Below are positions 1-55,611 of a stretch of 64,000 nucleotides of DNA, piece after piece (positions within the stretch are counted from its first letter, which is position 1; the number at the start of each line of letters is the position of its first letter). The translations under genes were made by a program, and so were the position numbers. This DNA is from Acidobacteriota bacterium (GTDB lineage Bacteria; Acidobacteriota; UBA6911), in the NCBI GenBank assembly GCA_012729555.1, contig JAAYCX010000020.1:14908-78907 (forward strand), written 5' to 3'. Below the pieces are notes generated by a model. It was not told the DNA's origin, searched no databases, and saw only the letters and a list, made by a program, of their open reading frames with translations.

Positions 1-783
1 GTCGCCATGACGCTGCTCAACCTCGCCAAGCGGACCGGCATCCCCGTCTTCCTCATCGGCCACGTCACCAAGGACGGCGCCATCGCGGGACCGAAGGCGC
101 TCGAGCACATCGTCGACGTCGTCCTCTATTTCGAGGGGGAGGGACGGCGCAACCACCGCATCGTCCGGGCGGTGAAGAACCGCTTCGGGGCGGCCAACGA
201 GGTCGGCATCTTCGAGATGACCTCCCGCGGCCTGGTCCCGGCCGCCAACCCCTCCGGCCTCTTTCTCCCCGACCGGGAGCTTTCGGCCGGCAGCTCGGTC
301 ATCTGCGCGATGGAGGGGACGCGGCCGCTCCTGGTCGAAATCCAGGCGCTGGTGGTCGCCACCCAGTACAGCACGGCGCGCCGCGTCGCCGACGGCGTCA
401 ACTACAACCGGATCTCGGTCCTGGTGGCGATGCTCGAAAAGCGGCTGGGAGTGCAGATGACGGGGAGCGACATCTACGTCAACACCGCCGGGGGGCTCGA
501 GGTGGACGAGCCCGCGGCCGACCTCGGCCTCTTCGCCGCCATCCTCGGCAGCCTGCGCAACCGCCCGCTGACCCCCGGGACCGTGCTCGTGGGGGAACTG
601 AGCCTGTCGGGCGACGTGCGCCCCGTCCCCCAGGCCCCCCTGAGGGTGCGCGAGGCGGCGGCCATGGGTTTCTCCCGCGTCCTCCTCCCCGCGGGGAACC
701 TCCCCCTCGTCGACCCCGTCGGCGGCATCGGGCTCGTGCCGATCGGGACGGTGGCGGAGCTCGCCGAGCTGATCTTCCCCTGA
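1..783 (+). CDS. radA: DNA repair protein RadA/Sms, C-terminal portion (5' end lies outside window)
   Basis: ORF 7..783 is open to the window edge; translation carries the RadA KNRFG motif (VKNRFGAANEVGIFEMT) and the Lon-protease-like C-terminal domain (GELSLSGDVRPV). Confidence 0.85.
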   Translation, partial: VAMTLLNLAKRTGIPVFLIGHVTKDGAIAGPKALEHIVDVVLYFEGEGRRNHRIVRAVKNRFGAANEVGIFEMTSRGLVPAANPSGLFLPDRELSAGSSVICAMEGTRPLLVEIQALVVATQYSTARRVADGVNYNRISVLVAMLEKRLGVQMTGSDIYVNTAGGLEVDEPAADLGLFAAILGSLRNRPLTPGTVLVGELSLSGDVRPVPQAPLRVREAAAMGFSRVLLPAGNLPLVDPVGGIGLVPIGTVAELAELIFP

Positions 784-9039: not shown

Positions 9040-11334
9040 CTATTCCGCCATGGTCACGCGGTCGCGCCCGGCGTTCTTGCTGCGGTAAAGGGCCTTGTCG
9101 GCCGCCTCGACGAGCGCCTGGGCGCTGCGGCCGTGGTCGGGGAAGACGGCCACCCCCATCGACGCCGTGATGCGCCCCAGGGGGATGCCGCGGTAGTGGA
9201 CATCCAGGCGCTGGATCGCCTCCTTGAAGAACTCGGCCCGCTGCCGGGTGACGTCGCGGCTCCCCTCGGGCAGGATCAGGGTGAACTCCTCCCCCCCGTA
9301 ACGGCAGGCGATGTCCTCGCCGCGGATGTTGCCCCGCAGCAGCAGCCCCAGCTCCTTCAGCAGCAGGTCCCCCGCCTCGTGCCCGAAGTTGTCGTTGAAG
9401 TACTTGAAGTGGTCGAGGTCGATCATGATCATCCCCAGCGGGCGCTGGTTCCGGGCCGCCCGGCGCAGTTCCAGCTCGAGCGACTCCTCCATGAACCTCC
9501 GGTTGAAGAGCCCCGTCAGCGGGTCGCGGATCGACTGGCTGCGCAGCGTCTCGTGCAGGCGCAGGTTCGACAGCGCCATGGCGATGTGCTCCGACATGGT
9601 GACGGCCAGCCGCTGCTTGCTCTCGGTCATCTGGACGTCGTCCGGCTGCATGAGGTGCAGCATCCCGAGCGCCTCGCTCTGCGCCATCATCGGGATGCAC
9701 ATGTAGCCGGCCGGGGCGGGGTGGTGCACGTGGCGGCAGACCAGGCCGGAGCCCGCGTGCTCGACCCAGTGGATCCGCCCCCGCCGCAGCGCCCAGCATT
9801 CGGCCGGGGCGAAGGACTCCTCCGCCAGCTCCGGGTCCCCCCAGACCGCCGCGGCCTCCACCGAGTCGCGGGAGGAGGAGATGACGTAGAGCGCCCCCAC
9901 CTTCGCCGGGAAGATCTGCTGCGCCACCCGGACGATGGCGCCGTAGGCCTCCTCGGTCGTGAGGCAGGCGCGCAGGATGTCGCCCATCTCGTTGAGGAGG
10001 ACCATCTCGCGCGTCCGCTGCTCCAGCTCCCCCACCCAGGCCTCGAGCTTCTCCTTCGCCTCCTTCAGCTGCGCCTCGGTCTTCTTGCGCGCGGTGATGT
10101 CGCGCGCGATCCCCTGCACCGACACGGCCCTCCCCTCGCGGAAGAGGGGGCGGGTGCTGACCTCCAGGGCGACGCGGCCGCCGTCCTTGGCCACGATCTC
10201 CAGTTCGTAATTCAGGGGGATTTCGCCCGCCACCTGCGGGTCGGTCAGCACTTCCCCCAGGTGGGCGCACTCGGGCGTCAGGAGGTCGGTGAACTTCATC
10301 TCGAGCGCCTCGGAGCGGGTGTAGAGCGCGATCCGCTCGATCGCCCGGTTGATCGACAGGATCCTCCCCTCGAAGTCGTGGGTGTAGATGATGTCGCTGG
10401 CGTTTTCGAACATCTCCCGGTAGATCCCTTCGCGCTCCTTCCGTTCCCCGGTGCCGCTGCGGCGGAAATACTCCCCGGGGTTGCGGAAGATCTCGACCAG
10501 GCGCGGCTCCTGGTGCACCAGGGGGAGAAAATGGGCCCGCACCGCCGGGTGGAGTTCGCTCCCGATCTCCGGGTGCGCCTCCATCCACATGTGCTCCCCC
10601 CGGGCCGCGGCGAGCAGGAGCGTCAGCGAAAGGTACCAGGCGTCCCCCAGCAGGTCCTTCAGCCCCGCCGTCGCGCGCTCCGCCCCGGGGACCCCCAAAA
10701 AGAGGGCCAGGGCGAGGGTGGACACCCCCTCCTCGAACCCGGGGACGCCGGCGGGCCAGGATCCGGAGGAGCGTGTCGTGCCGGCCAGGGCCGAGAGCGC
10801 GTTTTCGATCTCCCCGGCGTCGGGCTCCGGGAGTTCCAGCAGTTCCCTCACCTCGCGCGCGCCGACCCCCAGCTCGCGCAGGGTGCACGCGTGCACCACG
10901 GCGAAATAGGGGGAGGTCGTCGAACGGGAGAGGCGCAGCCGGAGCTTCTCCCTGAAAAGCTCCGGGAGCGGGTTGTCGCAGAAGCCCGCACGGTACCGGC
11001 GCCAGAGGTCTTCGAGGATGTCGGGAAACTCGAGGGCGGGAATGAAGCAGGGGGGTAGGAAACCGATCCGCTCCTCGATCGCGGCGCGGATGCGGGAAGC
11101 GTCCCCGCCGGCGGCCGGGGGCGCGGGCGCGGCCTCCGGGGCGAGTTCCGGTTCCAGGCGCTTCAGCTCCTCGAGCTTCCCCCAGAGGGCTTCCAGTTCG
11201 CCGTCCGTGCTGCCTTCCCGTTCCATTGCGCGATGAACCCGAGTGAGTAGAGCCTGCCCGTGACGCACCAGCGACGACGCATCTTCGGTTTGCTTCATCA
11301 GGGGCGGGGGGAGCGCTGTTTGCCTGAAGGGCAA
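9040..11334 (-). CDS. PAS-GAF-GGDEF diguanylate cyclase (intact GGEEF active site and RxxD I-site)
   Basis: C-terminal GGDEF domain with RGEDIACRYGGEEF; upstream GAF and PAS segments. Start is uncertain: TTG at 11334 or ATG at 11298. Confidence 0.85.
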   Translation of the reverse strand: MPFRQTALPPPLMKQTEDASSLVRHGQALLTRVHRAMEREGSTDGELEALWGKLEELKRLEPELAPEAAPAPPAAGGDASRIRAAIEERIGFLPPCFIPALEFPDILEDLWRRYRAGFCDNPLPELFREKLRLRLSRSTTSPYFAVVHACTLRELGVGAREVRELLELPEPDAGEIENALSALAGTTRSSGSWPAGVPGFEEGVSTLALALFLGVPGAERATAGLKDLLGDAWYLSLTLLLAAARGEHMWMEAHPEIGSELHPAVRAHFLPLVHQEPRLVEIFRNPGEYFRRSGTGERKEREGIYREMFENASDIIYTHDFEGRILSINRAIERIALYTRSEALEMKFTDLLTPECAHLGEVLTDPQVAGEIPLNYELEIVAKDGGRVALEVSTRPLFREGRAVSVQGIARDITARKKTEAQLKEAKEKLEAWVGELEQRTREMVLLNEMGDILRACLTTEEAYGAIVRVAQQIFPAKVGALYVISSSRDSVEAAAVWGDPELAEESFAPAECWALRRGRIHWVEHAGSGLVCRHVHHPAPAGYMCIPMMAQSEALGMLHLMQPDDVQMTESKQRLAVTMSEHIAMALSNLRLHETLRSQSIRDPLTGLFNRRFMEESLELELRRAARNQRPLGMIMIDLDHFKYFNDNFGHEAGDLLLKELGLLLRGNIRGEDIACRYGGEEFTLILPEGSRDVTRQRAEFFKEAIQRLDVHYRGIPLGRITASMGVAVFPDHGRSAQALVEAADKALYRSKNAGRDRVTMAE
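9459..9592. repeat. about 130-bp segment roughly 95% identical to 11816..11949 (paralog gene conversion tract)
   Basis: Manual alignment of both gene segments (both encode MALSNLRLHETLRNQSIRDPLTGLFNR at the start of the GGDEF domain); only about 7 mismatches over about 130 nt. Confidence 0.7.
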
Positions 11335-11391
11335 TTCTGACCCAACTCCCCGGAAAGGCCAAGAAAAAAATGCGTTGGGGGGGAGCCGGCG

Positions 11392-13356
11392 TCAGCTGGC
11401 GACCACCACCGAGTCCCCGCCCCCCGAGCGCGCCCGGCCGACGGCCGCCTCCGCCGAGCGCAGGAGGGCCTCCACGGTCTGCCCGTGATCGGGGAAGAGG
11501 GCCATCCCGACCGACGCGGAGACCCGGTCCCCCTCCCGCGCCCCGGGATACTGCACGTCCATCCCCCGCACCAGGTCCCTCAGCGTCTCGGCCCGCCTCC
11601 GGCCGACGTCGCGGCCGCTGTGGGGAAGGAGCAGCACGAAAGCGTGCCCGCTGAAGCGGCAGGCGACGTCTCCCTTGCGGATCCTGGACTGCAGCCGCGC
11701 GGCGGTCCGGCAGAGGAGGGAGTCCCCGGCGTCGAGCCCCCAGTCTTCGGTCATTTTCTGGAACCGGTCGAGCGCGGCCATGATCACCACCAGCGTCCCC
11801 TGGGTGCGCGCCGCGCGCCGCAGCTCCAGCTCGAGCGCCTCCTCCATGAAGCTGCGGTTGAAGAGCCCGGTCAGCGGGTCGCGGATCGACTGGTTGCGCA
11901 GCGTCTCGTGCAGGCGCAGGTTCGACAGCGCCATGGCGACCCGCTCCCCCATGGCGGTCGCGAGCCGCTGCTTCGCTTCGCCGAGCGGCGTCCCGTCGGC
12001 GTGGGCCAGGTGGAGCACCCCCACCGCCTCGCTCTGGGCCATCATCGGGACGCAGAGGTAGCCGCGCGGAGGGGGGGTCTCCAGGTGCTTGCACAGGAGG
12101 CCGACGCCGGTGTCCTCCACCCAGTGCACCCTCCCCCGGCGCAGGGCCCAGCATTCGTCGGGGGTGAAGGTGGTCGCCATCCGCTCCGCGTCCCCCCACC
12201 CGGCGACCGATTCCACGATGTTGCGGAGCGGGCCCATCACGTAGAGCGCCCCCGCCTCCTCCGGAAAGATCTCCCGGGCGATCCGCACGATCACCTCGTA
12301 GACCTCCTCGGCCGTGAGGCAGGCGCGCAGGATGTCGCCCATCTCGCCGAGCAGCGTCATCTCGCGGGTGCGCTGCTCCAGGTCCCGCACCCAGGCCTCG
12401 AGCCTGCGGTTGGCCGCGGCGAGCTCCCCCTCGGCCCTCTTCCGCTCGCTGACGTCCCGGGCGATCCCCTGGATCCCGTGGGGGCGGCCTTCGCGGAAGA
12501 TGAGACGGTGGCTCACCTCGAAGGTGAAGCGGGCGCCGTCCTTGGCGATGACGTCCAGTTCGGCCGTCATCGGCACCGCGTCGGCGATCTGCCGGTCGAT
12601 CATCCTGCGGGCGGCCGCCCTCGATTCGGGGGCCACCAGCTGGCTGAACCGCATCCGGAGGGCCTCCTCCAGGGAGTATCCCAGCATCCGCTCCGCCGCC
12701 TTGTTCATGGAGGTGATTCTGCCGGAGAGGTCGTGGGTGTAGACCATGTCGTAGGCGTTTTCGAACAGTTCCCGGTAGCGCTCCTCGCTCGCGCGCCGCG
12801 CCTCCTCGGCCAGCGCCCGCTCGGTCACGTCGCGCACGATCGCCAGGCCCCCGATCACCTCCCCCTCCCCCGGGCCGTGGATGGGACCGTAGTACCCCTC
12901 GAACCAGACGCTCGCGCCCCCCGGGGCCGTGTAGCACTTCCCCTTCGAAACGCTCTTCCGCCCCTCGAGCGCCGCACCGATGTTCGCGTCCTCCCCCAGC
13001 TCCTCCAGGAAGGGGCAGGCCAGGAAGGCGGGGCGGCCGAGGACCTCCCCCGCGGCGAGGCCGAACATCCTCTCCATCGCGGGGTTCCAGACCGTGAAGA
13101 ACCCGTCCCGGTCGAAGGCGATGATGCCGTCGACGCTGCTGTCGACGAGCCACCCGAGGAGCTGTTTCTCGCTCTCGAGCGCGCGGACCCTGGCGGGGAC
13201 GGGGGGGCGCTCCGGGGCGCCGGCCGGGGCGGGGGGGGCGCTCGCGGCGCCGCTGGGGGACGGGCGCAGGATGAGGCTGTGCAGGTGCGCGATCTCCTCG
13301 CGCAGCGACTCCAGTTCCTCTGCAAGATCGCTCTTGGGCGTGTCTTTCGGTTCCAT
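11392..13356 (-). CDS. PAS-PAS-GAF protein with degenerate GGDEF domain (SGHAF in place of GGDEF; I-site RKGD retained)
   Basis: Tandem paralog of the downstream gene. Active-site pentapeptide is SGHAF, confirmed on DNA (agcgggcacgctttc read on the minus strand); the RxxD motif is present 5 residues upstream. Confidence 0.85.
   Translation of the reverse strand: MEPKDTPKSDLAEELESLREEIAHLHSLILRPSPSGAASAPPAPAGAPERPPVPARVRALESEKQLLGWLVDSSVDGIIAFDRDGFFTVWNPAMERMFGLAAGEVLGRPAFLACPFLEELGEDANIGAALEGRKSVSKGKCYTAPGGASVWFEGYYGPIHGPGEGEVIGGLAIVRDVTERALAEEARRASEERYRELFENAYDMVYTHDLSGRITSMNKAAERMLGYSLEEALRMRFSQLVAPESRAAARRMIDRQIADAVPMTAELDVIAKDGARFTFEVSHRLIFREGRPHGIQGIARDVSERKRAEGELAAANRRLEAWVRDLEQRTREMTLLGEMGDILRACLTAEEVYEVIVRIAREIFPEEAGALYVMGPLRNIVESVAGWGDAERMATTFTPDECWALRRGRVHWVEDTGVGLLCKHLETPPPRGYLCVPMMAQSEAVGVLHLAHADGTPLGEAKQRLATAMGERVAMALSNLRLHETLRNQSIRDPLTGLFNRSFMEEALELELRRAARTQGTLVVIMAALDRFQKMTEDWGLDAGDSLLCRTAARLQSRIRKGDVACRFSGHAFVLLLPHSGRDVGRRRAETLRDLVRGMDVQYPGAREGDRVSASVGMALFPDHGQTVEALLRSAEAAVGRARSGGGDSVVVAS
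11816..11949. repeat. partner copy of the about 130-bp near-identical tract at 9459..9592
   Basis: See 9459..9592. Confidence 0.7.
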
Positions 13357-13537: not shown

Positions 13538-14410
13538 ATGAAGTACGAAGGGATGATTTACCGGCCTCCCAGCGAGGCCGACAGCCTGATCCTGCAGGTG
13601 GCGGTGGGGTGCTCCTACAACCGCTGCACCTTCTGCCACTCCTTCCGGGGGAAGACCTTCCGCGTCAAGTCGTTCGAGGAGATCCGGGAGGACATCGACG
13701 AGGCCTCCGCCTGCGGCCCGATCCGGCGCGTTTTCCTGGCCGACGGGGACGCGCTGGTGATGACCCAGCCGGAGCTGGTGCGGGTGCTCGGCTACCTCCG
13801 GGAGAAGATCCGCGGGCTGGAGCGGGTGGGGATCTACGCCAACGCCGTCGACATCCTGAAAAAGGAGCCGGAGGAGCTCGAAGAGCTCCGCTCCCTGGGG
13901 CTCGGCATCCTCTACCTGGGGCTGGAATCGGGGAACCCGGAGGTGCTCCGGCGGATCCGCAAAAACGCCACCGCGGAGCAGATGGTCCGGGCGGGAAAGC
14001 GGGTGAAGAGCTCGGGCATCCTCCTCTCGATCACGGTGCTGCTGGGGATCGGCGGGGTCGAGCTGAGCCAGGAGCACGCGCGGGACACCGGCAGGGTCCT
14101 GTCGGAGATGGACCCCGATTTCGTCGGCGCCCTCTCCCTCATCGTCGTCCCCGGCACCCCGATCGAAGAGGACCTCCGGAGCGGCCGCCTGGTCCTCCCC
14201 TCCCCCTTCGGCCTCATCCAGGAGCTGGGGATCATGATCGCCCACACCGACGTCACCCGCTGCTTCTTCGCCTCCAACCACGCCTCCAATTACCTGCCGC
14301 TCAGGATCCGGATGCCGGAGGAAAAGGGGCGCGCCCTCGGCCTCATCCGGGAAGTGCTGGAAAGAAAGGACCCGGAGCTGCTGCGCCCCGAATTCATGCG
14401 GGCCCTGTAA
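13538..14410 (+). CDS. radical SAM domain protein (unusual CX4CX2C cluster spacing)
   Basis: ATG 13538; motif VGCSYNRCTFCHSF read from gtg gcg gtg ggg tgc tcc tac aac cgc tgc acc ttc tgc; glycine-rich SAM-binding region follows. Family not assignable by eye. Confidence 0.7.
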   Translation: MKYEGMIYRPPSEADSLILQVAVGCSYNRCTFCHSFRGKTFRVKSFEEIREDIDEASACGPIRRVFLADGDALVMTQPELVRVLGYLREKIRGLERVGIYANAVDILKKEPEELEELRSLGLGILYLGLESGNPEVLRRIRKNATAEQMVRAGKRVKSSGILLSITVLLGIGGVELSQEHARDTGRVLSEMDPDFVGALSLIVVPGTPIEEDLRSGRLVLPSPFGLIQELGIMIAHTDVTRCFFASNHASNYLPLRIRMPEEKGRALGLIREVLERKDPELLRPEFMRAL

Positions 14411-14476: not shown

Positions 14477-14881
14477 ATGGGCGCAGGAAAGAAATTCTGG
14501 GTGGGAGGCCTCATCATCGTCGCGGCCCTGGCGTGGCTCGGGTTCGTGGGCTTCCAGGAGAGCAAGGCCTACTACATCACGGTGGACGAGTTCAGCTCGC
14601 TGCGGGGGGAATACGAGGGGAAGCGCTTCAAGCTCGCCGGGGACGTCGTCGAGGGATCGATCGACCGGAGCCGGCCGCAGATGGAGTTCGTCATCTCGAG
14701 CCCCCGGTCGAGCATCCGCGTCCGCTACACCGGCGCGGACATCATCCCCGACACCTTCAAGGACGGGTCGAAGGCCCTGGTGGAAGGGACCGTCGCCCCC
14801 GACGGCGTCTTCGAAGCCCGGCGGATAGAGGCGAAGTGCGCTTCGAAATACGAAGCGGAGTACGACGAGAGAACCTCCTGA
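14477..14881 (+). CDS. ccmE: cytochrome c-type biogenesis heme chaperone CcmE, Cys (CxxxY) variant
   Basis: N-terminal membrane anchor and OB-fold core; heme-binding motif reads AKCASKYEA, with Cys where canonical CcmE has His (HxxxY). Confidence 0.85.
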   Translation: MGAGKKFWVGGLIIVAALAWLGFVGFQESKAYYITVDEFSSLRGEYEGKRFKLAGDVVEGSIDRSRPQMEFVISSPRSSIRVRYTGADIIPDTFKDGSKALVEGTVAPDGVFEARRIEAKCASKYEAEYDERTS

Positions 14882-14894
14882 CTTCAGGGACTTC

Positions 14895-16880
14895 ATGGCC
14901 GATTTCGGAAATTTCTGCCTTCTCCTGGCCCTGTGCCTTTCGCTCTACGCCCTCATCGCCTCGCTGACCGGCGCCTCCCTCGCCCGGCGCCGCGTCGTCT
15001 GGAGCGGGGAGCGCGCGGCGCTCGCCGCCTCGGCGGCCGCCCTCCTCGCCTTCGGCGCCCTCCTCTACCTCATGCTGGCGGACGATTTCGCCACCTCCCA
15101 CGTGGCCAACAACAGCAGCCGCTCGCTCCCCATCCTGTACAAGATCTCGGCCATCTGGGGGGGGCACGACGGCTCGATGCTCCTGTGGGTGTTCTTCACC
15201 GCCCTCCTCTCGGGCCTCGTCATCGTGCAGAACCGCCGCCGCCACCGGGACATGATGCCCTGGGTGGTCGCCGTGCTGATGGTCAACCTCGCCTTCTTCC
15301 TCGCGCTCAACCTCTTTTTGTCCAACCCCTTCGACCAGCTGGTCCGGATCTCGCCCGACGGCGCGACGGCCCCCTTCGTCCCCGCCGACGGGAGGGGGCT
15401 CAACCCGCTGCTCCAGTACTGGGCCATGGTCATCCACCCCCCGATCCTCTACGTGGGCTTCATCGGCTTCGTGGTCCCCTTCGCCTTCGCCGTCGCCGCC
15501 CTCGTCACCCGGCAGCAGGGCAACGCCTGGGTCCGGATCGTCCGGCGCTGGACGCTGGTGGTCTGGCTGTTGCTGGGGATCGGCATCATCCTCGGCGGCA
15601 AGTGGGCCTACGTCGTGCTCGGGTGGGGGGGGTACTGGGGGTGGGACCCGGTGGAGAACGCCTCCCTGATGCCGTGGCTGGTGAGCACCGCTTTCCTCCA
15701 TTCCATCGTCGTGCAGGAGCGGCGCGGGATGCTGAAGGTCTGGAACGTCATCCTGGTCCTCCTCACCTACCTCCTCGGGATCTTCGGGACCTTTCTCACC
15801 CGCAGCGGGATCGTCAATTCGGTGCACGCCTTCGCCGACTCGAACCTGGGAAGGTTCTTCGTCTACTACATGGCCTTCGTGCTCGCCGGCACCCTCCTGC
15901 TCCTGGCCGACCGGCAGCCGTACCTGCGGAGCGAGCGGCGGCTCGACTCGATGATCTCGCGCGAAAGCGCCTTCCTGTTCAACAACCTCGTGCTGGTGGC
16001 CGCCTGTTTCGCCGTGTTCTGGGGCACGATGTTCCCCGCCCTGTCGGAATGGATCCGGGGGACCAAGATCTCGGTCGGCCCCCTCTTCTTCGACAGGATC
16101 AACGTCCCGATCGGTCTGCTCCTGCTCCTGCTGACCGGGATCGGGCCGCTGCTGGCCTGGCGCCGGGCCTCGCCCGCCGCCCTCGGCCGGGCGTTTTTGT
16201 GGCCCGGCGTCGCCGCCGCCCTGGCCCTGGCCGGGCTCCTCGCCGGGGGGCTCCGGAATTTTTACGTGACCGTCTGCCTCACCCTCTGCGCCTTCGTCCT
16301 GGCGACCATCGTCCAGGAGTTCGCCGAAGGCGCCCGGGTACGGATGCGGCAGCACGGGGAACGTTTCCCCGAAGCCCTCGGCCGCCTCGTCCTCCGCAAC
16401 ACCCGCCGCTACGGGGGGTACGTCGTCCACCTCGGCGTGGTGCTCATGTTCGTGGGGTTCGCCGGGAACGCCTTCAACCGGGAGGCCACGCTCCACCTCC
16501 AGACGGGGGAGACGGGGAGGGTGGGCGATTACGCCCTCACCCTGGCCGATTTCCACCAGGGGCGGGAGGCCCTGTACGAGTACGGGCGGGCGGTGATCGA
16601 GGTCACCCGCGACGGCCGGCCGGCCGGCACCCTGACCGCGGAAAAGCGCATCTTCGATTCCGGGGGGCAGACCACCACGACCGTGGGCCTTCGCAGCACC
16701 CCGAAGGAGGACCTGTACGTGGTCTTCACCGGCATCACGGGGGACGCCTTCGAGATCAAGGCGCACGTGAACCCCCTGGTGTTCTGGCTCTGGCTCGGGT
16801 CCGGGATCCTGGTCCTGGGGACCCTCCTGACCCTTTTGAACTCAAAGCGCGGCGGCCGCCCCGGGGAGGCCGTTCGCTGA
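14895..16880 (+). CDS. ccmF: cytochrome c-type biogenesis protein CcmF
   Basis: 661-aa polytopic membrane protein with CcmF/NrfE signature segments (WGGYWGWDPVEN, conserved His residues). Confidence 0.9.
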   Translation: MADFGNFCLLLALCLSLYALIASLTGASLARRRVVWSGERAALAASAAALLAFGALLYLMLADDFATSHVANNSSRSLPILYKISAIWGGHDGSMLLWVFFTALLSGLVIVQNRRRHRDMMPWVVAVLMVNLAFFLALNLFLSNPFDQLVRISPDGATAPFVPADGRGLNPLLQYWAMVIHPPILYVGFIGFVVPFAFAVAALVTRQQGNAWVRIVRRWTLVVWLLLGIGIILGGKWAYVVLGWGGYWGWDPVENASLMPWLVSTAFLHSIVVQERRGMLKVWNVILVLLTYLLGIFGTFLTRSGIVNSVHAFADSNLGRFFVYYMAFVLAGTLLLLADRQPYLRSERRLDSMISRESAFLFNNLVLVAACFAVFWGTMFPALSEWIRGTKISVGPLFFDRINVPIGLLLLLLTGIGPLLAWRRASPAALGRAFLWPGVAAALALAGLLAGGLRNFYVTVCLTLCAFVLATIVQEFAEGARVRMRQHGERFPEALGRLVLRNTRRYGGYVVHLGVVLMFVGFAGNAFNREATLHLQTGETGRVGDYALTLADFHQGREALYEYGRAVIEVTRDGRPAGTLTAEKRIFDSGGQTTTTVGLRSTPKEDLYVVFTGITGDAFEIKAHVNPLVFWLWLGSGILVLGTLLTLLNSKRGGRPGEAVR

Positions 16881-16918
16881 CGGGCGCCGGCCCGGGGGCC
16901 GGCTGACAGGGAGTGGCG

Positions 16919-17323
16919 ATGCTCTGGATCGTGTGCGCGGTGGCCGTCGTGGTCGCGGGAGGGTTCGTCCTCGCCCCCCTCTTCAGGAGCGCGCCCCCGG
17001 GGGCGGACGCCGGGGGGGAAACGGAGCGCGACCGCCTGCTCGAGCGCAAGACGGCGTGCTACCGCAACCTCAAGGAGCTGGAGTTCCAGTTCGGGATGGG
17101 GCGCCTCCTCGAGGCCGATTACGAAATGCTCCGGGCGGAACACCGGGCCGAGGCGGCCCGCATCCTGGAGGAGCTGGAGCGGCTCGGGGCTCCCGGCGGC
17201 CGGCGGGCGGCCGGGCTCGGGCCGGGGGGGAAGAAAGAGCGTGACAGCGCCCGCTGCCCCGCCTGCGGCGCCGCCGTCTCCCCCGGCAAGAAATTCTGTG
17301 CGGACTGCGGAAAGCGGCTTTAA
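16919..17323 (+). CDS. hypothetical membrane-anchored protein with C-terminal zinc ribbon (CPAC...CADC)
   Basis: Sits between ccmF and ccmA; N-terminal TM helix, helical middle and two CxxC pairs at the C-terminus; ATG 16919 after AGGGAG. Confidence 0.5.
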   Translation: MLWIVCAVAVVVAGGFVLAPLFRSAPPGADAGGETERDRLLERKTACYRNLKELEFQFGMGRLLEADYEMLRAEHRAEAARILEELERLGAPGGRRAAGLGPGGKKERDSARCPACGAAVSPGKKFCADCGKRL

Positions 17324-17327
17324 AACC

Positions 17328-18395
17328 ATGAAAACGGTGCGCCTGATTCTGATCCTGATCCTCTCCGCGGCCGGGGCACGGGCCCAGGAGCGCGGCGTCG
17401 TCGAAGGGCGGCTGGTCAACCGGACCGACCCCTCGATCCTCCCCTCCGGCGCCCCGCTCGAGATCCTCGAGCTGGAGGGGGGGATGCGGACCATCCGGAG
17501 CGCCGTCACCGATGCCGCGGGGGGAGTGCGCATCGAGGGGCTCCCCCGGTCGGAGCGGCTGATGCTGCGCGCCTCCTGGCGGGGGGTCCCCTACCACGCC
17601 CCGCTCGCCTTCGACGCCGCGGGGGTGGCCCGGGTGGAGCTCGAAGTCTACGAGACCACCTCTTCCGACGCCGACATCCGGGTGGAAAAGGTCCAGATGG
17701 CGTTCCAGTTCTCCGGGGACCGGATCCAGGCGCTCGAAACCTGGACCCTCCATAACCGCTCCCGTCCCCCCAGGATCTACGCCGACCCGGCGGGCACCTT
17801 CCGGATCTCCAAGGCGCCGGGGATCCTCCAGCCGCCGCGGATGCGGGTGACGGCCCCCGACTCCACCATGCCGCTGGTGCAGCCGGCGCTCGAAAGCGCC
17901 GACGGGGAGAGCTACTACACCCTCTACCCCTTGCGCCCCGGCCTGACCCTCATCGAGGCGGAGCAGGCGCTCCCCTACGCCGACCGCGCCTACACGTTCG
18001 TCAAGAAGTTCCACCGCGACGTGGAAGCGTTCCATATCGGCGTCCTCCCCGCCGACATGCTCCTCGAGGGGGCGGGGATCGAGCGGGTCGAGTCGCCCGG
18101 CGGCATGGCCGTCTACTCGAGCCCCGCGGCGGGCGCGGGGACGGAGGCGGCCTGGACCTTCTCGGGCGGGACCCCGGTGCCCGCGGCGTCCGCGCCCGGG
18201 GCGTCCGCGCCCGGGGCGGAGGAGGCGGAAGAGGGGGACCGCGTGGTGGCCCGCCCTTCGGCGGTGGGGCGAAACGCCCTCGTCATCGGCCCCCTGTTGC
18301 TCCTCGCCTTCATCCTCCCGCTCTGGTACGCCTGCAACCGGCCCCCCGGCCGGGGGCGTACGGCGAAGGCGTACAGCGAAAAAGTAAAGCCATGA
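17328..18395 (+). CDS. hypothetical exported protein with carboxypeptidase-regulatory-like N-domain and C-terminal TM anchor
   Basis: Signal peptide MKTVRLILILILSAAGARA, then GVVEGRLVNRTD..., then C-terminal hydrophobic helix VIGPLLLLAFILPLWY; inserted inside the ccm cluster. Confidence 0.55.
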   Translation: MKTVRLILILILSAAGARAQERGVVEGRLVNRTDPSILPSGAPLEILELEGGMRTIRSAVTDAAGGVRIEGLPRSERLMLRASWRGVPYHAPLAFDAAGVARVELEVYETTSSDADIRVEKVQMAFQFSGDRIQALETWTLHNRSRPPRIYADPAGTFRISKAPGILQPPRMRVTAPDSTMPLVQPALESADGESYYTLYPLRPGLTLIEAEQALPYADRAYTFVKKFHRDVEAFHIGVLPADMLLEGAGIERVESPGGMAVYSSPAAGAGTEAAWTFSGGTPVPAASAPGASAPGAEEAEEGDRVVARPSAVGRNALVIGPLLLLAFILPLWYACNRPPGRGRTAKAYSEKVKP

Positions 18396-19126
18396 TCGAA
18401 GTCCGGGGACTGGCCAAATACTACGGCAGGCAGAGCGCGCTGCGCGGCCTCGACCTGCGGATCGCGCGGGGGGACTTCATCGCCCTCTTCGGCAGAAACG
18501 GCGCCGGGAAGACCACCTTCCTGAGGATCCTGGCGGGGCTCGCGCGCCCCTCCGCCGGCACCTGCCGGATCGCGCCGGCGGCCGGAGGCGCCGGCGGGGA
18601 GACCCCCGCCCGGACCCGCGGCCGGATCGGATACCTCTCCCACCACACCTCCCTCTACCCCGACCTGACCGCCCTGGAAAACCTGCGCTTCTTCGCCCAT
18701 CTGGCGGGGGTGCCGGCCGACGACCCCTCGCTCGCCGGGAAAATCGGCGCGGTGGGGCTCGCCGGGCGGGAGCGCGAACCGGTGCGCACCTACTCCCGGG
18801 GGATGCAGCAGCGCCTGGGCATCGCCCGGGCGCTGCTGCACGACCCCGACATTCTCCTGCTCGACGAGCCCTTCACGGGCCTCGACCAGGCCGGCGCCGA
18901 TTTTCTGAAGGGCTACCTCGCCGGGGCGCGCCGCGCGGGAAAGACGTGCGTCATGGCGCTCCACGACGCCGGGCTCGGCCACCAGCTGGCGAGCCGGCTG
19001 GTGGTGATCGACCGGGGGACGGCCGCGCTCGACGTCGAGCGGGACTCCCTCCCGCTCGACGCCTTCCGCGAGCGGTACGCGGCCATCCTCGGCCCGCGCC
19101 CCCCCGCCGGCGGGGGGGCGTCATGA
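18392..19126 (+). CDS. ccmA: heme exporter ATP-binding protein CcmA
   Basis: Walker A GRNGAGKTT, signature YSRGMQQRLGIARAL, Walker B ILLLDEPFTGLD; ATGA overlap with the previous gene. Confidence 0.8.
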   Translation: MIEVRGLAKYYGRQSALRGLDLRIARGDFIALFGRNGAGKTTFLRILAGLARPSAGTCRIAPAAGGAGGETPARTRGRIGYLSHHTSLYPDLTALENLRFFAHLAGVPADDPSLAGKIGAVGLAGREREPVRTYSRGMQQRLGIARALLHDPDILLLDEPFTGLDQAGADFLKGYLAGARRAGKTCVMALHDAGLGHQLASRLVVIDRGTAALDVERDSLPLDAFRERYAAILGPRPPAGGGAS

Positions 19127-19791
19127 GAAGGCTCTGGGCCGTGTTCCGCAAGGACCTCGCGATCGAGCTGAGAACCAAGGACTCGCTCAACACGATGCTG
19201 TTCTTCGGGATCGTGGTCCTGGTCGTCTTCCACTTCGCCCTCCGTTCGGGCGAGGTCGAGGCGCGGGCGGCCGCGCCCGGGGTCCTCTGGGTCGCCTTCG
19301 CCTTCGCCGGGACGCTGGGGCTCAACCGGATGTTCGCGGCGGAGAAGGAAAACGGCTGCCTGGAGGGGCTGATGATGATGCCGGCGGACCGGGGGGTCCT
19401 CTACCTCGGGAAGATGCTGGCCGGGACCGTCTTCATGCTCGCGGCCGAAGCCGTCATCTTCGTCGCGAGCCTCGTCTTCTTCAACCTCGAAGTCTGGGGC
19501 GAACTCCCCTGGCTCGCGCTGGTGTTTTTCGTCGGGACGCTGGGGTTCACCGCCGTCGGGACGCTCCTGGCGGCCGTCGCCGTGAACACCCGGATGCGGG
19601 AGGTGCTCCTCCCCGTGATCCTCTTCCCCGTGGTCCTGCCGGTGCTGATCCACGCGGTGGAGGCGACGGCCCTCGTCCTGGGCGGGGCGGACCGGGGGGA
19701 GCTCCGGCTCCCGCTCGCCGTCCTGTCGGTTTTCACGGTCGTGTTCGGCACGATCGCCTATCTGCTCTTCGAGCACGTTCTGGAGGACTAG
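19123..19791 (+). CDS. ccmB: heme exporter protein CcmB
   Basis: Six-TM protein; ATG 19123 overlaps the ccmA stop; typical CcmB N-terminus MRRLWAVFRKDLAIELR. Confidence 0.8.
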   Translation: MRRLWAVFRKDLAIELRTKDSLNTMLFFGIVVLVVFHFALRSGEVEARAAAPGVLWVAFAFAGTLGLNRMFAAEKENGCLEGLMMMPADRGVLYLGKMLAGTVFMLAAEAVIFVASLVFFNLEVWGELPWLALVFFVGTLGFTAVGTLLAAVAVNTRMREVLLPVILFPVVLPVLIHAVEATALVLGGADRGELRLPLAVLSVFTVVFGTIAYLLFEHVLED

Positions 19792-19792
19792 G

Positions 19793-20473
19793 ATGAACGA
19801 ACGGACCTCCGCCCGCCTGGACCCGGTCCTGTGGGGCATCCTGGGGATCGCGATGCTGGCCGCGCTCTACCTGGCCCTCGTCGACGCCCCCAGGGAGCGG
19901 ACCATGGGGGACCTGCAGCGCATCTTCTACTTTCACGTGGCCGCCGCCGTCGCGGGGCTGACGGCCTTCGGCGTCAATTTCGCCTCCTCGATCGCTTACG
20001 TGGCCCGCCGGGAGCGGCGGTGGGACCGCCTGGCGCTCTGCGCGGCCGAGACCGGGGTCGCCTTTTTCGCCATCGTCCTCCTCACCGGCCCGATCTGGGC
20101 CAAGCCGGTCTGGATGGTCTGGTGGACCTGGTCGCCGCGGCTGACCTCGTCCCTCGTCCTCTGTCTCCTCTACGTCGCCTACCTGCTCGTGCGGCGCTAC
20201 CTCGAGGACCCCGACCGGCGGGCGATGATCGCCGCCGTGTTCGGCATCGTGGCCTTCGTCGACGCCCCGCTGGTCTGGTTCTCCATCCGCTGGTGGCGCG
20301 ACATCCACCCCTCGCCGATGCTCGAGAGCGGGGGGATCGACCCGGCCATGCGCCCCGCGTTCTGGGCCTGCCTGGCGGCCTTCGAGCTGCTGCTGGTCTA
20401 CCTGCTGCGGCGGCGCTACGCGCTGGAATCGCTCGAGGAGGAGCTGGAACGGCTCGGGCGCCTGGCGGAATGA
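19793..20473 (+). CDS. ccmC: heme exporter protein CcmC
   Basis: Conserved tryptophan-rich WWD-type segment (WAKPVWMVWWTWSPRL) and conserved His residues. Confidence 0.85.
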   Translation: MNERTSARLDPVLWGILGIAMLAALYLALVDAPRERTMGDLQRIFYFHVAAAVAGLTAFGVNFASSIAYVARRERRWDRLALCAAETGVAFFAIVLLTGPIWAKPVWMVWWTWSPRLTSSLVLCLLYVAYLLVRRYLEDPDRRAMIAAVFGIVAFVDAPLVWFSIRWWRDIHPSPMLESGGIDPAMRPAFWACLAAFELLLVYLLRRRYALESLEEELERLGRLAE

Positions 20474-20492
20474 TTTTCAGGGAGTCTGCCCC

Positions 20493-20633
20493 ATGAACAC
20501 CATGAACTATCTCTTCGCGGCCAACGCCGTCATCTGGATCGTGCTCGCCCTCTTCCTGCTCCGGCTGCACGCGCGCGAGCGGAAACTGGGGGAGGAAATC
20601 GCCCGCCTGCGCCGGCTGATCGACAGGACCTAG
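20493..20633 (+). CDS. ccmD: heme exporter protein CcmD (46 aa; absent from ORF track)
   Basis: atgaacaccatgaactat...gacaggacctag gives MNTMNYLFAANAVIWIVLALFLLRLHARERKLGEEIARLRRLIDRT: single TM followed by a basic tail, directly after ccmC. Confidence 0.6.
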   Translation: MNTMNYLFAANAVIWIVLALFLLRLHARERKLGEEIARLRRLIDRT

Positions 20634-22828
20634 TCGGCGGCGACGGGCTGCGGGGCCAGCCGGAGGAGGAGGGCGCGCGCTTCTTCGCCGAGGAATTCCC
20701 AGAGCCCGAGCCGCGAGAGCGTTTCGGGGAGCGGGACCCCCTCCGGGCTCCACCCCCGCTCGCGGTAGTAGGCCGCGATCAGCCCCCGCAGCCGCTCCTT
20801 GCGGCAGGCCATGAGCCGCTCCCGCTTTTCCGCCGTCGGCAGCTCCGCGAGCCGCTCGGGCGCGAGGCCGCAGCAGGCGGCGAGCTCCCCGTCGTTGTAG
20901 GCGGCCTCCGCCTCGTAGAGGAGGTCGTCGGTCGGCCCGAGGGCGCGGTCGGGGATCCAGTCGTGGCGCGAGGTCTCCTCCCCGTAGCGGAGCACGTTCA
21001 GGACCCGCTGCAGGTTGATGTCGCGGTCGGTGCGGGCGAAGATCTCCTCCCACCCCAGCTCGGTCCCCAGCACGCCGTTGTAGTACTCGGCGTAGATCTC
21101 CTGCGTCGCCGGGTTGATGTTGACGTCCCCCTCCCCGCGCGCGTTCGATTCCGGGTTGAAGACATCGACCCAGGGGAGCTTGCACACCCCCATGTTGTCG
21201 TTCCCCAGGCGCACGCGCGGGTAGCTGACCAGCGCCCGGGCCTTGTCCTCGAAGGTGGGGAAGGCGCCCAGGAGGTCGGCCTTGATCAGCCAGGCGGCGG
21301 CGTGGTGGGCGCCGATGTCGCTCGCCGCGGCGTAGGACGCCTGCATCGAGAGGGAGCGGTGGGTCCGGTAGAAGGAGAAGGGAAGCCCCTTGGTCTGCAT
21401 CGCGAACGTCTCCAGTTCCGGGAGCGCGTCCTCCCCCGTCCGGGCGCGATGGCGCGCGGCGACCCAGGCGACCAGTTCCCCGATCCCCCTCCCGGCGGCG
21501 CGCGCCATTTCGCCCGACCCGTGCGCCAGGCGGTGGATGAATTCCAGGGCGGCCGGTTCGTCCCCCCACGAGAGCGCCGGGCCCCCGCCGTCCCCCGGCT
21601 CGAGGTAGCCGCGCTGCAGCGCCTCCATCAGGAACGCCATGATGCAGGAGGTGGTGATGGTGTCGATGCCGTAGTTGTCGCAGTGCCAGTTGGCTTCCAT
21701 GATGAACTCGGGGTTCCAGATGCCGAGGTTCGACCCGAAGCCGGCGGCGGTCTCGTATTCGGGCCCGTCCACCCACACCCGGCGCCCGGCGTGCGGGCCG
21801 CTCCGGAGCGTCACGCACCCCCCCTTGGTGCACTGCAGGTTGCAGCCGGGGAAGCAGCCGTCCATCCCCCGGTGGTCGAAGAGGTGCTCGGCGTAGTGCC
21901 TCCCGCAGATCTGTCCCGCCCTGGGGTCGGAGCCGAGCTGGAAGTTGCGGACCGGGAGCGACTGGTACTCCTCCCTGTTCATGAAGGTGATGAGCCCCGC
22001 GCTCCCCTTGCGCGCCATCTGGAGCGACCCGGGGTCGACCTCGCGCACCACCTTCTGCAGCCGCCCCCCCGCCCGGCGGGCGCGCTCCCAGTCGGCGGCG
22101 CCGTAGGGGTTTTCGCCGCGCGGGCTCTCGGCCACGACCACGATCGCGCCGAGGTTCTTGTCCCGCATAACGGTGCCGAGGCCCGTCCTTCCCGCCTGCT
22201 TGACCCGGAAGATCCCGCGCCCCCCCTCGCGCGGCTTGGTGACGTCCCAGTAGTGGCTGTTGATGCAGCCGTAGGCCGTGTGGGCGGCGCCGACGCCGGT
22301 GGAGAGGAAGGCGATGCGGCGCCGGTCGACCCCGGCCGCCTCGAAACGCCGGGCGATCTCCCCCTCCAGCTCGAACGCCTCCTCCCCCGGGGGCGCCTCC
22401 TCGATCCGCACCTCCCCCCGCAGGCCGTCGACGACCACCATCGCCCGCCCGGCCGATTTCCCGACCACCTCGAGGGCGTCGAACCCCGCGTACTTCAGGT
22501 AGGCCCCGAAATACCCGCCGAAGTTGGACACCCCGGGGATGCGGGTCAGGGGGGAGAGGGAGACCGCCATCGCCTTGGCCGCCCCCGGGAACTGGGGGAT
22601 CCCCCCGAGCGGGCCGTTGGCCACGATCAGGGGGTTTTCGGGGTCCTCGGGCCGGGTGGCGGCCGAGACCGCCTGGTGCAGCAGGTAGAGGCCCAGGGCG
22701 CGCCCCCCCAGGAAATAGTCCCGGACCTTCGGGTCGAGCGTCCGGACCGCGGCCGAGCGCGCGGCGAGGTCCACGCGGAGGACCCTGTTGGTGTAGCCGC
22801 GCTCGATCGTCCCTCTGCTGTAGTGCAT
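20630..22828 (-). CDS. tungsten-type aldehyde:ferredoxin oxidoreductase (AOR family), long 732-aa form
   Basis: N-terminal AOR_N-like segment (GYTNRVLRVDL...) and catalytic-domain motifs including DGCFPGCNLQCTKGGC; ATG at 22828. Confidence 0.8.
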   Translation of the reverse strand: MHYSRGTIERGYTNRVLRVDLAARSAAVRTLDPKVRDYFLGGRALGLYLLHQAVSAATRPEDPENPLIVANGPLGGIPQFPGAAKAMAVSLSPLTRIPGVSNFGGYFGAYLKYAGFDALEVVGKSAGRAMVVVDGLRGEVRIEEAPPGEEAFELEGEIARRFEAAGVDRRRIAFLSTGVGAAHTAYGCINSHYWDVTKPREGGRGIFRVKQAGRTGLGTVMRDKNLGAIVVVAESPRGENPYGAADWERARRAGGRLQKVVREVDPGSLQMARKGSAGLITFMNREEYQSLPVRNFQLGSDPRAGQICGRHYAEHLFDHRGMDGCFPGCNLQCTKGGCVTLRSGPHAGRRVWVDGPEYETAAGFGSNLGIWNPEFIMEANWHCDNYGIDTITTSCIMAFLMEALQRGYLEPGDGGGPALSWGDEPAALEFIHRLAHGSGEMARAAGRGIGELVAWVAARHRARTGEDALPELETFAMQTKGLPFSFYRTHRSLSMQASYAAASDIGAHHAAAWLIKADLLGAFPTFEDKARALVSYPRVRLGNDNMGVCKLPWVDVFNPESNARGEGDVNINPATQEIYAEYYNGVLGTELGWEEIFARTDRDINLQRVLNVLRYGEETSRHDWIPDRALGPTDDLLYEAEAAYNDGELAACCGLAPERLAELPTAEKRERLMACRKERLRGLIAAYYRERGWSPEGVPLPETLSRLGLWEFLGEEARALLLRLAPQPVAAD

Positions 22829-22951: not shown

Positions 22952-24355
22952 GTGAAAACAGCTTCCCCGAACGCCGACTGGGCCGCGATCTTCCGCGGGC
23001 GACGCGACCGGATCCGGGCCCGGACCGGAGGCGGCCCGATCCTCTGGCTGGGGCACGCGCCCCAGCCGCGCAACTACGCCGCCAACACCTACCCCTTCCG
23101 GCAGAATTCCCATTTCCTCTACTGCACCGGGCTGGCCGAACCGGACCTCGCCCTCCTCTCGCTGCCGGAAGCGGGGCGCGACATCCTCTTCGGCGACGGG
23201 GCGAGCCTCGACGACATCGTCTGGACCGGCCCGCGCCCCTCGCTCGAGGAGCTGGCGGCCGCGGCCGGCATCGACGACGTCCGCCCGGCGGAGAGCCTCC
23301 GGGGAGTCCTCGACGAGGCGCGGCGGCAGGGGCAGCCCGTCCACTACCTCCCCCCCTACCGGCACTCCTCGGTCTACGCCCTCTCGCGCCTGCTCGACAT
23401 CCCGATGGAGGAAGTGGGGGGGCGCGCCTCCTCCCTCCTGATGGAGCAGGTGGCGATCGAGCGGAGCGTCAAGGGCCCCGAGGAGGTGGCCGAGATCGAG
23501 GAGGCGCTCGGGATCACCGGCCGGATGCACCGCGCGGCGATGGCGGCGGCGCGCCCCGGGATGAAGGAAAGCGAGCTGGCGGGCCTGATCCAGGCGATTG
23601 CCCTCGCCGAAGACCGCGCCCAGGCCTACGACCCGATCGTGACGGTGCACGGGGAGGTGCTGCACAACCACTCCTACGACAATGTCCTCGCCGCGGGGGG
23701 GCTGGTGCTCAACGACTCCGGGGCGGAGTCCCCGATGGGCTACGCTTCGGACATCACCCGCACCTTCCCCGTCTCCGGGCGCTTCTCGCCGCTCCAGGCC
23801 GACCTCTACCGCGCCGTGCTCGGGACGCAGCGGGAGGCCATCGCCATGATCCGCCCCGGCGTCTCCTACCGCGAAGTCCACCTCGGCGCCTGCCGCCGCC
23901 TGGCCGAAGCGCTCCGCGGCCTGGGGCTGATGAAGGGGGACCCCGCGGCCGCGGTCGAGGCGGGGGCCCACGCGCTCTTTTTGCCGCACGGGATCGGCCA
24001 CATGCTCGGGCTCGACGTGCACGACATGGAGGACCTCGGGGACGTGGTCGGGCACGGAAAGGAGAAGCGCCCGGGTCAGTTCGGGCTCAACTACCTGAGG
24101 CTCAGCCGCCCGCTCGAGGCGGGGTTCGTGCTGACGGTGGAGCCGGGGGTCTACTTCATCCCCGCCCTCATCGAGCGCTGGCGCGCCGAAGGGCTCCACC
24201 GGGAATTTCTCGACTACGACCGGATCGCCCCCCTGGCCGGCTTCGGGGGGATCCGCACCGAAGACGACGTCCTGGTCACCCCCGAAGGGGCCCGCGTCCT
24301 GGGCCCCCCGGTCCCGAAGACGGTCGAGGAGGTGGAGGAGGCGTGCGCCCGATGA
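22952..24355 (+). CDS. pepP: Xaa-Pro aminopeptidase (M24B family)
   Basis: GTG start 22952; M24 metal-binding segments (HGIGHMLGLDVHD, VEPGVYF) and the AMP_N domain. Confidence 0.85.
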   Translation: MKTASPNADWAAIFRGRRDRIRARTGGGPILWLGHAPQPRNYAANTYPFRQNSHFLYCTGLAEPDLALLSLPEAGRDILFGDGASLDDIVWTGPRPSLEELAAAAGIDDVRPAESLRGVLDEARRQGQPVHYLPPYRHSSVYALSRLLDIPMEEVGGRASSLLMEQVAIERSVKGPEEVAEIEEALGITGRMHRAAMAAARPGMKESELAGLIQAIALAEDRAQAYDPIVTVHGEVLHNHSYDNVLAAGGLVLNDSGAESPMGYASDITRTFPVSGRFSPLQADLYRAVLGTQREAIAMIRPGVSYREVHLGACRRLAEALRGLGLMKGDPAAAVEAGAHALFLPHGIGHMLGLDVHDMEDLGDVVGHGKEKRPGQFGLNYLRLSRPLEAGFVLTVEPGVYFIPALIERWRAEGLHREFLDYDRIAPLAGFGGIRTEDDVLVTPEGARVLGPPVPKTVEEVEEACAR

Positions 24356-53870: not shown

Positions 53871-53899
53871 TTTGCCCTGGTCCGTCCCCGTTTTTTTAT
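53871..53899. repeat. copy A of 28/29-nt repeat TTTGCCCTGGTCCGTCCCCGTTTTTT(T)AT
   Basis: Identical core to copy B at 55612..55639; overlaps the hipA stop codon (53896-53898). Confidence 0.65.
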
Positions 53900-55149: not shown

Positions 55150-55514
55150 CGGATACCCCCGTCTTTTGGCTTGCCGGGATTCCGCCGACGCGAAGGCCGG
55201 ATGCGCAGAGGGAGACGCTCCTCTTCAAGTTCCCGTCCGACGGCATCGTGCCGGGGGTCGGCGACATCGGCAAGCCGGTCGACCATTCCCAGGGCGAAAA
55301 GAACGGTGGCCCAGGTGCCCAGCGAGACGCCGGGATCCCCCTTCTCCACTTTGTTCAGGGTCGTGCGGCTGATGGACGCACGCTCCGCCATGACCGCGAC
55401 GGGGATGCGGCGCCGCCGCCGGGCGTCACGGACATCGTGCCCCAGCTTGCGGAGGGCACGCCTCACCGGTATCGGTGCCCCCGAAAATGATCGCCTGTCG
55501 CCTTTATCGTCCAT
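55146..55514 (-). CDS. hipB: HipB-like XRE-family HTH antitoxin
   Basis: HTH_XRE segment (MAERASISRTTLNKVEKGDPGVSLGTWATVLFALG); overlaps the hipA start by 4 nt. Confidence 0.75.
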   Translation of the reverse strand: MDDKGDRRSFSGAPIPVRRALRKLGHDVRDARRRRRIPVAVMAERASISRTTLNKVEKGDPGVSLGTWATVLFALGMVDRLADVADPRHDAVGRELEEERLPLRIRPSRRRNPGKPKDGGIR

Positions 55515-55515
55515 T

Positions 55516-55551
55516 ATAATAGTCCTTAATAAATAGAAGGTACACTATTAT
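55516..55551. promoter_or_regulatory. inverted repeat ATAATAGT-N20-ACTATTAT in hipBA leader (candidate HipB operator)
   Basis: Arms at 55516-55523 and 55544-55551, immediately upstream of the hipB start on the minus strand; a TTGACA-like box lies further upstream on that strand. Confidence 0.3.
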
Positions 55552-55611
55552 GGACGTTCTGTCAATGGAGGCGCGACCGCACCGGAAGAAGATCCTCTGT
55601 TTTTTCAGTTA

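Follow-up and report, generated by a model that had tools for sequence, protein, structure and literature searches.

Within a 64 kb stretch of an Acidobacteriota metagenome-assembled genome (MAG; contig JAAYCX010000020.1), which we call the window and whose numbering is used for all coordinates, positions 14477-20633 of the + strand very probably constitute a single eight-gene System I cytochrome c maturation (Ccm) operon of the Cys-type, or System I*, in which the haem-binding histidine of the haem chaperone CcmE is replaced by a cysteine. Since the cluster matches the published System I*, its core is not a new finding. The new part is two conserved genes between ccmF and ccmA, here called X1 and X2: X2 matches no Pfam or NCBIfam family, and the family relation of X1 lies below threshold. 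We consider, with good confidence, that a System I* operon with X1 and X2 belonging to the machine is the best overall explanation of the region, which comprises the following features:

14477-14881, + strand: ccmE, encoding a Cys-type, membrane-anchored haem chaperone of 134 amino acids (aa) with a hydrophobic N-terminal anchor (Pfam PF03100, E = 2e-23).
14837-14851, + strand: the CxxxY haem-binding motif of CcmE (Cys121...Tyr125, C121-A-S-K-Y125), which replaces HxxxY, from direct reading of the sequence and from alignments.
14895-16880, + strand: ccmF, encoding the haem lyase, 661 aa (PF01578, Cytochrom_C_asm, E = 1e-35; PF16327, CcmF_C, E = 2e-63; TIGR00353, 462 bits).
16919-17323, + strand: X1, 134 aa, with a predicted transmembrane (TM) helix, helical hairpin, disordered linker and C4 zinc ribbon.
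17328-18395, + strand: X2, 355 aa, with a predicted signal peptide or anchor, two β-sandwich domains, a linker and a C-terminal TM helix.
18392-19126, + strand: ccmA, encoding the ATP-binding cassette (ABC) ATPase (TIGR01189, 136 bits against a cutoff of 131.6; PF00005).
19123-19791, + strand: ccmB, encoding the ABC permease (PF03379, E = 1e-36).
19793-20473, + strand: ccmC, encoding a haem-handling WWD protein (TIGR01191, E = 3e-35, below cutoff; PF01578).
20493-20633, + strand: ccmD, encoding a 46-aa single-pass membrane protein with one hydrophobic segment (TIGR04391, CcmD_alt_fam, 31.3 bits against a cutoff of 24).

The order ccmE, ccmF, X1, X2, ccmA, ccmB, ccmC, ccmD and the coordinates put forward in an original prediction made for this DNA are confirmed, and Pfam and NCBIfam identify the Ccm proteins among the eight products. 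Intergenic gaps measure 4 to 38 nucleotides (nt), and the genes overlap by 4 nt at the X2/ccmA and ccmA/ccmB junctions. The haem-delivery module CcmABCD is complete, with ABC ATPase, permease, the WWD protein CcmC and a small CcmD, and both the CcmE haem chaperone and a CcmF lyase with a WWD motif (WGGYWGWDPVEN, from a tabulation of motifs across loci) are encoded. CcmD, a small single-pass protein encoded 3' of ccmC, scores above the cutoff of the alternative CcmD family TIGR04391. Identical gene calls are found on the public contig that contains the window, JGI Ga0123326_1000045 (102.9 kb), and the CcmF protein of the window is encoded on contigs from more than 20 samples. The guanine-cytosine (GC) content is 0.64-0.75 across the window (about 70% overall), in agreement with the high-GC bacterial host that had been proposed.

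The defining feature of the cluster is the residue at the haem-binding position of CcmE. The DNA quoted in the original prediction, gcgaagtgcgcttcgaaatac, is present, CcmE reads AKCASKY and the TGC codon at 14837-14839 encodes Cys121. In a HMMER alignment to the solved CcmE structures 2kct, 8ce8, 1sr3 and 1j6q, '...IEAKCASKY' of the window falls over '...VLAKHDENY' of Escherichia coli (1sr3, 8ce8) and Shewanella (1j6q), and equally over '...LMTKCP' of the Cys-type CcmE of Desulfovibrio vulgaris (2kct). A MAFFT alignment of structure fragments and the CcmEs of related loci likewise lines up C121 with E. coli H130; the residue just before is an invariant Lys, and a conserved Tyr (Tyr125) lies 4 residues after Cys121. 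By these alignments, Cys121 occupies the haem-binding position of CcmE and does not lie outside it, as the prediction of CxxxY in place of HxxxY had implied; haem binding there would presumably be through a thioether, as proposed for System I* (PMC3601427). The cysteine is also a constant of the family: CASKY is found in 40 of 40 Acidobacteriota species loci with a readable ccmE, the CcmEs of six distant loci with available DNA are all Cys-type (KCASKY, KCPSRY or KCSSKY) and, overall, a Cys-type CcmE is encoded in 46 of 46 non-redundant loci where it could be read.

The partners that canonical System I uses for thiol-redox chemistry, CcmH and CcmG, have no counterpart in the window. Among its coding-like open reading frames (ORFs), picked by third-position GC and then covered by a Pfam scan or precomputed Pfam annotation, we found no thioredoxin-like, Redoxin or CcmG domain, no CcmH domain (PF03918) and no DsbD or CcdA domain. 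When divergent CcmH, thioredoxin-like and DsbD proteins of related Cys-type clusters were used as tblastn queries, the same 64 kb gave no match at E < 1, and neither a second ccmE nor a second ccmF was detected there by tblastn. Of the nearby genes that would have spoken against the prediction, the window thus shows no second ccmE by tblastn and no ccmH by either tblastn or Pfam. The claim that ccmG and ccmH are both missing from the window stands for CcmG and for the thiol-redox domain of CcmH; it needs restricting to that domain because E. coli CcmH also carries a fused CcmI N-domain, which X1 weakly resembles.

The combination of the Cys position with the lack of CcmH and CcmG in the window identifies the cluster as System I*, in line with the match to the variant system of archaea and Desulfovibrio that had been suggested. 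The two share a CxxxY CcmE, the presence of CcmA, CcmB, CcmC, CcmD and CcmF, and a cluster free of CcmH and CcmG; we also take the Desulfovibrio ccm order to begin with E-F and to end with A-B-C-D. The window differs from System I* in carrying X1 and X2 between ccmF and ccmA, in its Acidobacteriota host and in a CcmC motif, WWTWSPRLT, that lacks Asp. Relative to the canonical System I of E. coli (CcmABCDEFGH), CcmA, CcmB, CcmC, CcmD, CcmE and CcmF are homologous, whereas CcmG and CcmH are missing from the window, the haem-binding His is a Cys and the gene order is different. A Cys-for-His CcmE without CcmH has been described in archaea and in some bacteria including Desulfovibrio, whose ccm operon, with neither CcmH nor CcmG, supports holocytochrome production in E. 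coli (PMC3601427, section 8), and Methanosarcina genetics show that the Cys of CXXXY is required (PMC9084895, section 8). The studies of System I* that PMC3601427 and PMC9084895 cite include Allen et al. (2006, FEBS Lett 580:4827) and Goddard et al. (2010, J Biol Chem 285:22882).

The tryptophan-rich motif of CcmC varies among loci. It reads WWTWSPRLT in 43 loci of the set L006-L050, a count that includes the contig of the window and a few duplicates, and WWAWTPRLT or WWNWTSRLT in 3 further loci of that set. The position that is Ser or Thr throughout this set is Asp or Glu in clusters from other phyla (L051, L053-L055), for example in WWDWDARLT.

Not every Cys-type cluster is free of thiol-redox genes. 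A PF03918 CcmH is encoded between ccmF and X1 in three of them, a Planctomycetota MAG (L053:6110-6844), L056 (L056:6140-6649) and the P0154 locus, and one further related Cys-type cluster (L052) has DsbD and thioredoxin-like genes adjacent. The CcmH found beside a Cys-type CcmE is divergent, with LNCLCAGCR or LVCQCGCQ (CLCAGC or CQCGC) in place of LRCxxC. The divergent CcmH of these three Cys-type clusters shows that a Cys-type CcmE can coexist with CcmH, and neither 'System I* lacks CcmH' nor 'Cys-CcmE means no CcmH' is a general rule in bacteria. These same clusters, together with the fact that the DNA at hand is 64 kb of a genome, lend some weight to a simpler account, in which the cluster is part of an ordinary System I, with ccmG, ccmH and ccdA located elsewhere in the genome, and the CcmE Cys is a neutral substitution. 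We find this account decidedly unlikely. All 46 related loci in which this residue can be read have the Cys, and the CcmH accompanying a Cys-type CcmE does not have the LRCxxC motif. Furthermore, the Cys would not be neutral in a canonical system because the E. coli H130C variant of CcmE binds haem and then fails to transfer it to CcmFH (PMC9084895, section 12).

A word-indexed search returned 239 X2 homologues at about 50% identity, and a species scan, with one genome per GTDB species and gene order checked by tblastn with the eight window proteins, yielded 45 loci, all in Acidobacteriota MAGs. The full order ccmE-F-X1-X2-A-B-C-D was found in 36 of the 45, a further 8 are limited by contig ends and consistent with it, and one is an exception (L020); X2 thus occupies the identical slot, with X1 adjoining, in 44 of 45 species loci. 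In the exception, on JAISUT010000064.1, X2-ccmA-ccmB are preceded by 4 kb that contain no ccmE, ccmF or X1 and are not followed by ccmC; this may be a split cluster or a misassembly.

The X2 family reaches well beyond this phylum. An exhaustive profile search delineated 2,636 clusters at 50% identity with E < 1e-3, at least 935 of them at E < 1e-10, many about 400 aa long and spanning the whole profile, and a further protein search with an alignment of distant X2 sequences gave 7 proteins; named distant examples come from candidate division KSB1, Planctomycetota and Caldilineaceae. Eight distant loci were examined, whose X2 homologues share 20-25% identity with one another; all 8 have X2 within a ccm cluster, and X1 comes before it in 7. 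The order E-F-X1-X2-A-B-C-D recurs in a KSB1 MAG (L051), in the P0175 locus and in L055, whose X1-slot gene shows the X1 motifs and a zinc ribbon in its sequence despite having no Pfam match; L054 has the same order, with no ccmD called. The three clusters with CcmH read E-F-CcmH-X1-X2-A-B-C, with an additional ccmD in L056 and, in P0154, a 155-aa gene assigned to X1 by its slot. In the Caldilineaceae-like L052, ccmE is followed by a gene in which two cytochrome c domains precede an X2-like region, and then by ccmA, ccmB, ccmC, ccmD, DsbD and a thioredoxin-like gene. X1 precedes X2 everywhere examined except in L052 and L020.

The L052 fusion (L052:8001-9815) has CAPCH and CVECH in its N-terminal cytochrome c domains and lies directly between ccmE (KCPSRY) and ccmA, with no adjacent ccmF or X1.

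X2 therefore tracks ccm clusters with a Cys-type CcmE across phyla, and X1 and X2 are conserved members of Cys-type ccm operons in at least four named bacterial groups and nowhere else among the loci examined. This overturns the description of the two middle genes as inserted, given the 44 of 45 Acidobacteriota loci and, for X2, the 8 of 8 distant ones. It also bears on whether the pair could be passengers unrelated to cytochrome c maturation, next to a system that is simply CcmEFABCD as in Desulfovibrio. According to published accounts, System I* functions with ccm genes alone (PMC3601427, section 8; PMC9084895, section 12), no catalytic or cofactor motif can be recognised in X2 and L020 retains X2-ccmA-ccmB with no ccmE, ccmF or X1 upstream, all of which would suit passengers. 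They would not, however, be expected to remain linked across phyla, as this slot has at low sequence identity; with the overlap of the X2 stop and the ccmA start and the resemblance of X1 to the CcmI N-domain, the passenger account is very unlikely. On the basis of their sequences and conserved context, X1 and X2 are probably true Ccm components.

What they might do is suggested first by X1. It combines an N-terminal hydrophobic helix with a C-terminal C4 zinc ribbon (Zn_ribbon_3, E = 1e-7), and its AlphaFold2 (AF2) model shows a TM helix at residues 2-22, helices at 36-59 and 65-90 that form a hairpin (36-90, with a predicted local distance difference test score, pLDDT, of about 90), a disordered linker and the zinc ribbon. 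Residues 1-76 align to TIGR03142, the N-domain of CcmI, with 25 bits, below the cutoff of 29.3, and 24 of 36 X1 family members from related loci reach E < 0.01 against this model, the best of them 4e-6. This is a resemblance and not membership in the CcmI family, the N-terminal module scoring below the family cutoff; one close X1 homologue is annotated as CcmI by JGI. The family alignment shows invariant residues, and a PDB sequence search with the X1 profile matched zinc ribbons only.

CcmI, or CycH, the apocytochrome c chaperone of CcmFHI, corresponds to the C-terminal half of E. coli CcmH. Its tetratricopeptide repeats (TPRs) are the part that binds apocytochrome, and its gene often takes the slot after ccmF or ccmH. 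X1 shares that slot and matches the first ~70 positions of TIGR03142, that is, the TM helix and the cytoplasmic helical region, but lacks the second TM helix and the periplasmic TPR domain and ends instead in a zinc ribbon on the cytoplasmic side. The periplasmic part would come from a separate protein, X2, which is a β-sandwich protein with the reversed domain order, periplasmic domain first and TM helix after it. In characterized CcmI, two TM helices are joined by a cytoplasmic region, with a leucine zipper in Rhodobacter, and are followed by a periplasmic TPR domain (PMC3884852, section 2.5), and in E. coli the CcmI N-domain is fused to CcmH (PMC9084895).

The AF2 model of X2 (mean pLDDT of 84.5, above 90 over the periplasmic part) is all-β, with a predicted signal or anchor helix, two β-domains (residues ~22-280), a disordered linker and a TM helix at 315-337. 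A PDB profile search with 30 distant X2 homologues, the window X2 and one Acidobacteriota homologue gave nothing significant. Within Acidobacteriota, Tyr and Met residues are conserved (Y89, Y196, Y200, Y217 and M53); across the wide family, N, P, Y and G are the sole invariant residue types and the periplasmic part has no conserved His or Cys. The window X2 and its nearest relatives (341-355 aa) are a short form: most family members, at about 400 aa, extend past the TM helix into a cytoplasmic helical tail of ~50 residues that the short form lacks, with the consensus ...LLxxLAxLDxxYExxxLxxxEYxxxRExxKxxL. The profile of the X2 TM helix and tail aligns with the TM and helix region of X1 (hhalign E = 1.6e-4, probability 50%), a suggestive resemblance of the tail to a CcmI N-domain rather than an established relation. 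NCBI lists a protein identical to the window X2 as hypothetical, from an 'Acidobacteria bacterium' MAG, and X1 and X2 genes are at present labelled 'hypothetical' or 'carboxypeptidase regulatory-like'. In the searchable literature, which does not include key older papers, we found no mention of X1 or X2 in a Ccm context, including work on Ccm in Acidobacteria and on zinc-ribbon or carboxypeptidase-regulatory proteins.

We also considered X2 as a thiol oxidoreductase that would replace CcmG and CcmH. It has no periplasmic Cys and is therefore not a reductase of the CcmG/CcmH type, and this candidate was rejected.

Two directions of function can then be compared. The first would put the pair on the haem-delivery side, with X2 docking or releasing holo-CcmE or buffering periplasmic haem, and with the zinc ribbon of X1 coupling CcmAB to the cytoplasmic haem, iron or redox status. 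The translational coupling of X2 to ccmA, the strict association with a Cys-type CcmE (46 of 46 readable loci), the conserved Tyr and Met residues of the Acidobacteriota X2, which could ligate haem, and the one X2 homologue fused to two cytochrome c domains are all compatible with this. It is nonetheless unlikely, in view of a periplasmic part of X2 without conserved His or Cys, X1 homologues that have no zinc ribbon (L044, L048 and L056) and, in the CcmH-bearing clusters, an X1-X2 pair that comes after ccmH, on the lyase side.

The second direction follows from that position. Because the pair is linked to ccm genes across phyla, lies in the slot after ccmF or ccmH (F-H-X1-X2 where CcmH is present, the slot that ccmI often occupies), includes a protein resembling the CcmI N-domain and has a topology that faces the periplasm, we tentatively propose a CcmI-like role in apocytochrome handling, an assignment that we rate at somewhat below even chances. 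By analogy with characterized Ccm systems, CcmABCD would move haem to the periplasmic face, where CcmC would load it onto Cys121 of the membrane-anchored CcmE; holo-CcmE would pass it to the lyase CcmF, which would join it to the CXXCH motifs of Sec-exported apocytochromes, with no cluster-encoded CcmH thiol-redox subunit taking part. X1 and X2 would associate with CcmF as a membrane module that holds the apocytochrome at the lyase, as CcmI classically does: the β-sandwich domains of X2 might hold the apocytochrome in the periplasm, on the C-terminal membrane anchor, and X1 might supply a CcmI-like membrane and cytoplasmic part. Both the complex of X1, X2 and CcmF and its chaperone role are inferred here.

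Several observations weigh against this proposal. All matches of X1 to TIGR03142 stay below the curated cutoff, the X2 tail matches that model in just 1 of 34 and 1 of 32 members and is missing from the window X2, and Pfam detects no TPR in either protein. Foldseek comparison of the X2 model with the PDB returned generic β-sandwich proteins at best, with a TM-score of at most 0.33. Since the System I* of Desulfovibrio and that of Methanosarcina are reported to work from ccm genes alone (PMC3601427; PMC9084895), X1 and X2 are not universally required and would be at most accessory or lineage-specific. CcmG, CcdA or CcmH could be encoded elsewhere in the genome. Finally, the role suggested for X1 and X2 derives from sequence, structural models and genomic context.

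A possible client of the operon is encoded in the same window. An ORF at 55636-56979 (- strand; ~385 aa) has an N-terminal hydrophobic segment, the motifs CAPCH and CGYCH, and no Pfam match at E < 1e-4, and is a candidate dihaem c-type cytochrome and, as such, a likely substrate of the ccm operon. It is flanked by toxin-antitoxin-like genes at 53896-57607, namely a HipA kinase with its helix-turn-helix partner (- strand) and a PIN-domain ORF (+ strand).

Upstream of the ccm genes, two adjacent PAS-GAF-GGDEF signalling proteins (752 and 654 aa; 9040-13356, - strand) are separated from ccmE by a radical S-adenosylmethionine (SAM) gene at 13538-14410. A promoter and terminator scan gave no convincing signals for the operon boundaries, the sole promoter-like site being at 13502, upstream of the radical-SAM gene. 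Downstream, an aldehyde:ferredoxin oxidoreductase gene (20630-22828, - strand) is convergent with ccmD, their stop ends overlapping by 4 nt, and is next to an M24 peptidase gene (22952-24355, + strand). The oxidoreductase also lies downstream of ccm in the distant Acidobacteriota loci L003 and L005, and the peptidase is kept in L005. Rfam finds no RNA family in the window, and an ARAGORN call of 'tRNA-???' at 487-578 (- strand), with a four-base anticodon and inside a coding region, is probably spurious.

A Cys-type CcmE is by now textbook knowledge, and the core of this operon will not surprise specialists. How maturation proceeds without CcmH and CcmI in System I* is, by contrast, an acknowledged open question, and the replacement of CcmH and CcmI by non-orthologous proteins has itself been posed as one (PMC9084895). 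X1 and X2 offer concrete candidates. They could, although we hold this to be short of probable, form an unrecognized apocytochrome-handling module of bacterial System I*, conserved in Acidobacteriota, KSB1, Planctomycetota and Chloroflexota-like genomes, which would be a non-orthologous stand-in for CcmI and possibly for CcmH too in lineages that lack it. Recognizing the pair would make better annotation possible for cytochrome-rich uncultured anaerobes among the Acidobacteriota, KSB1 and Planctomycetota.

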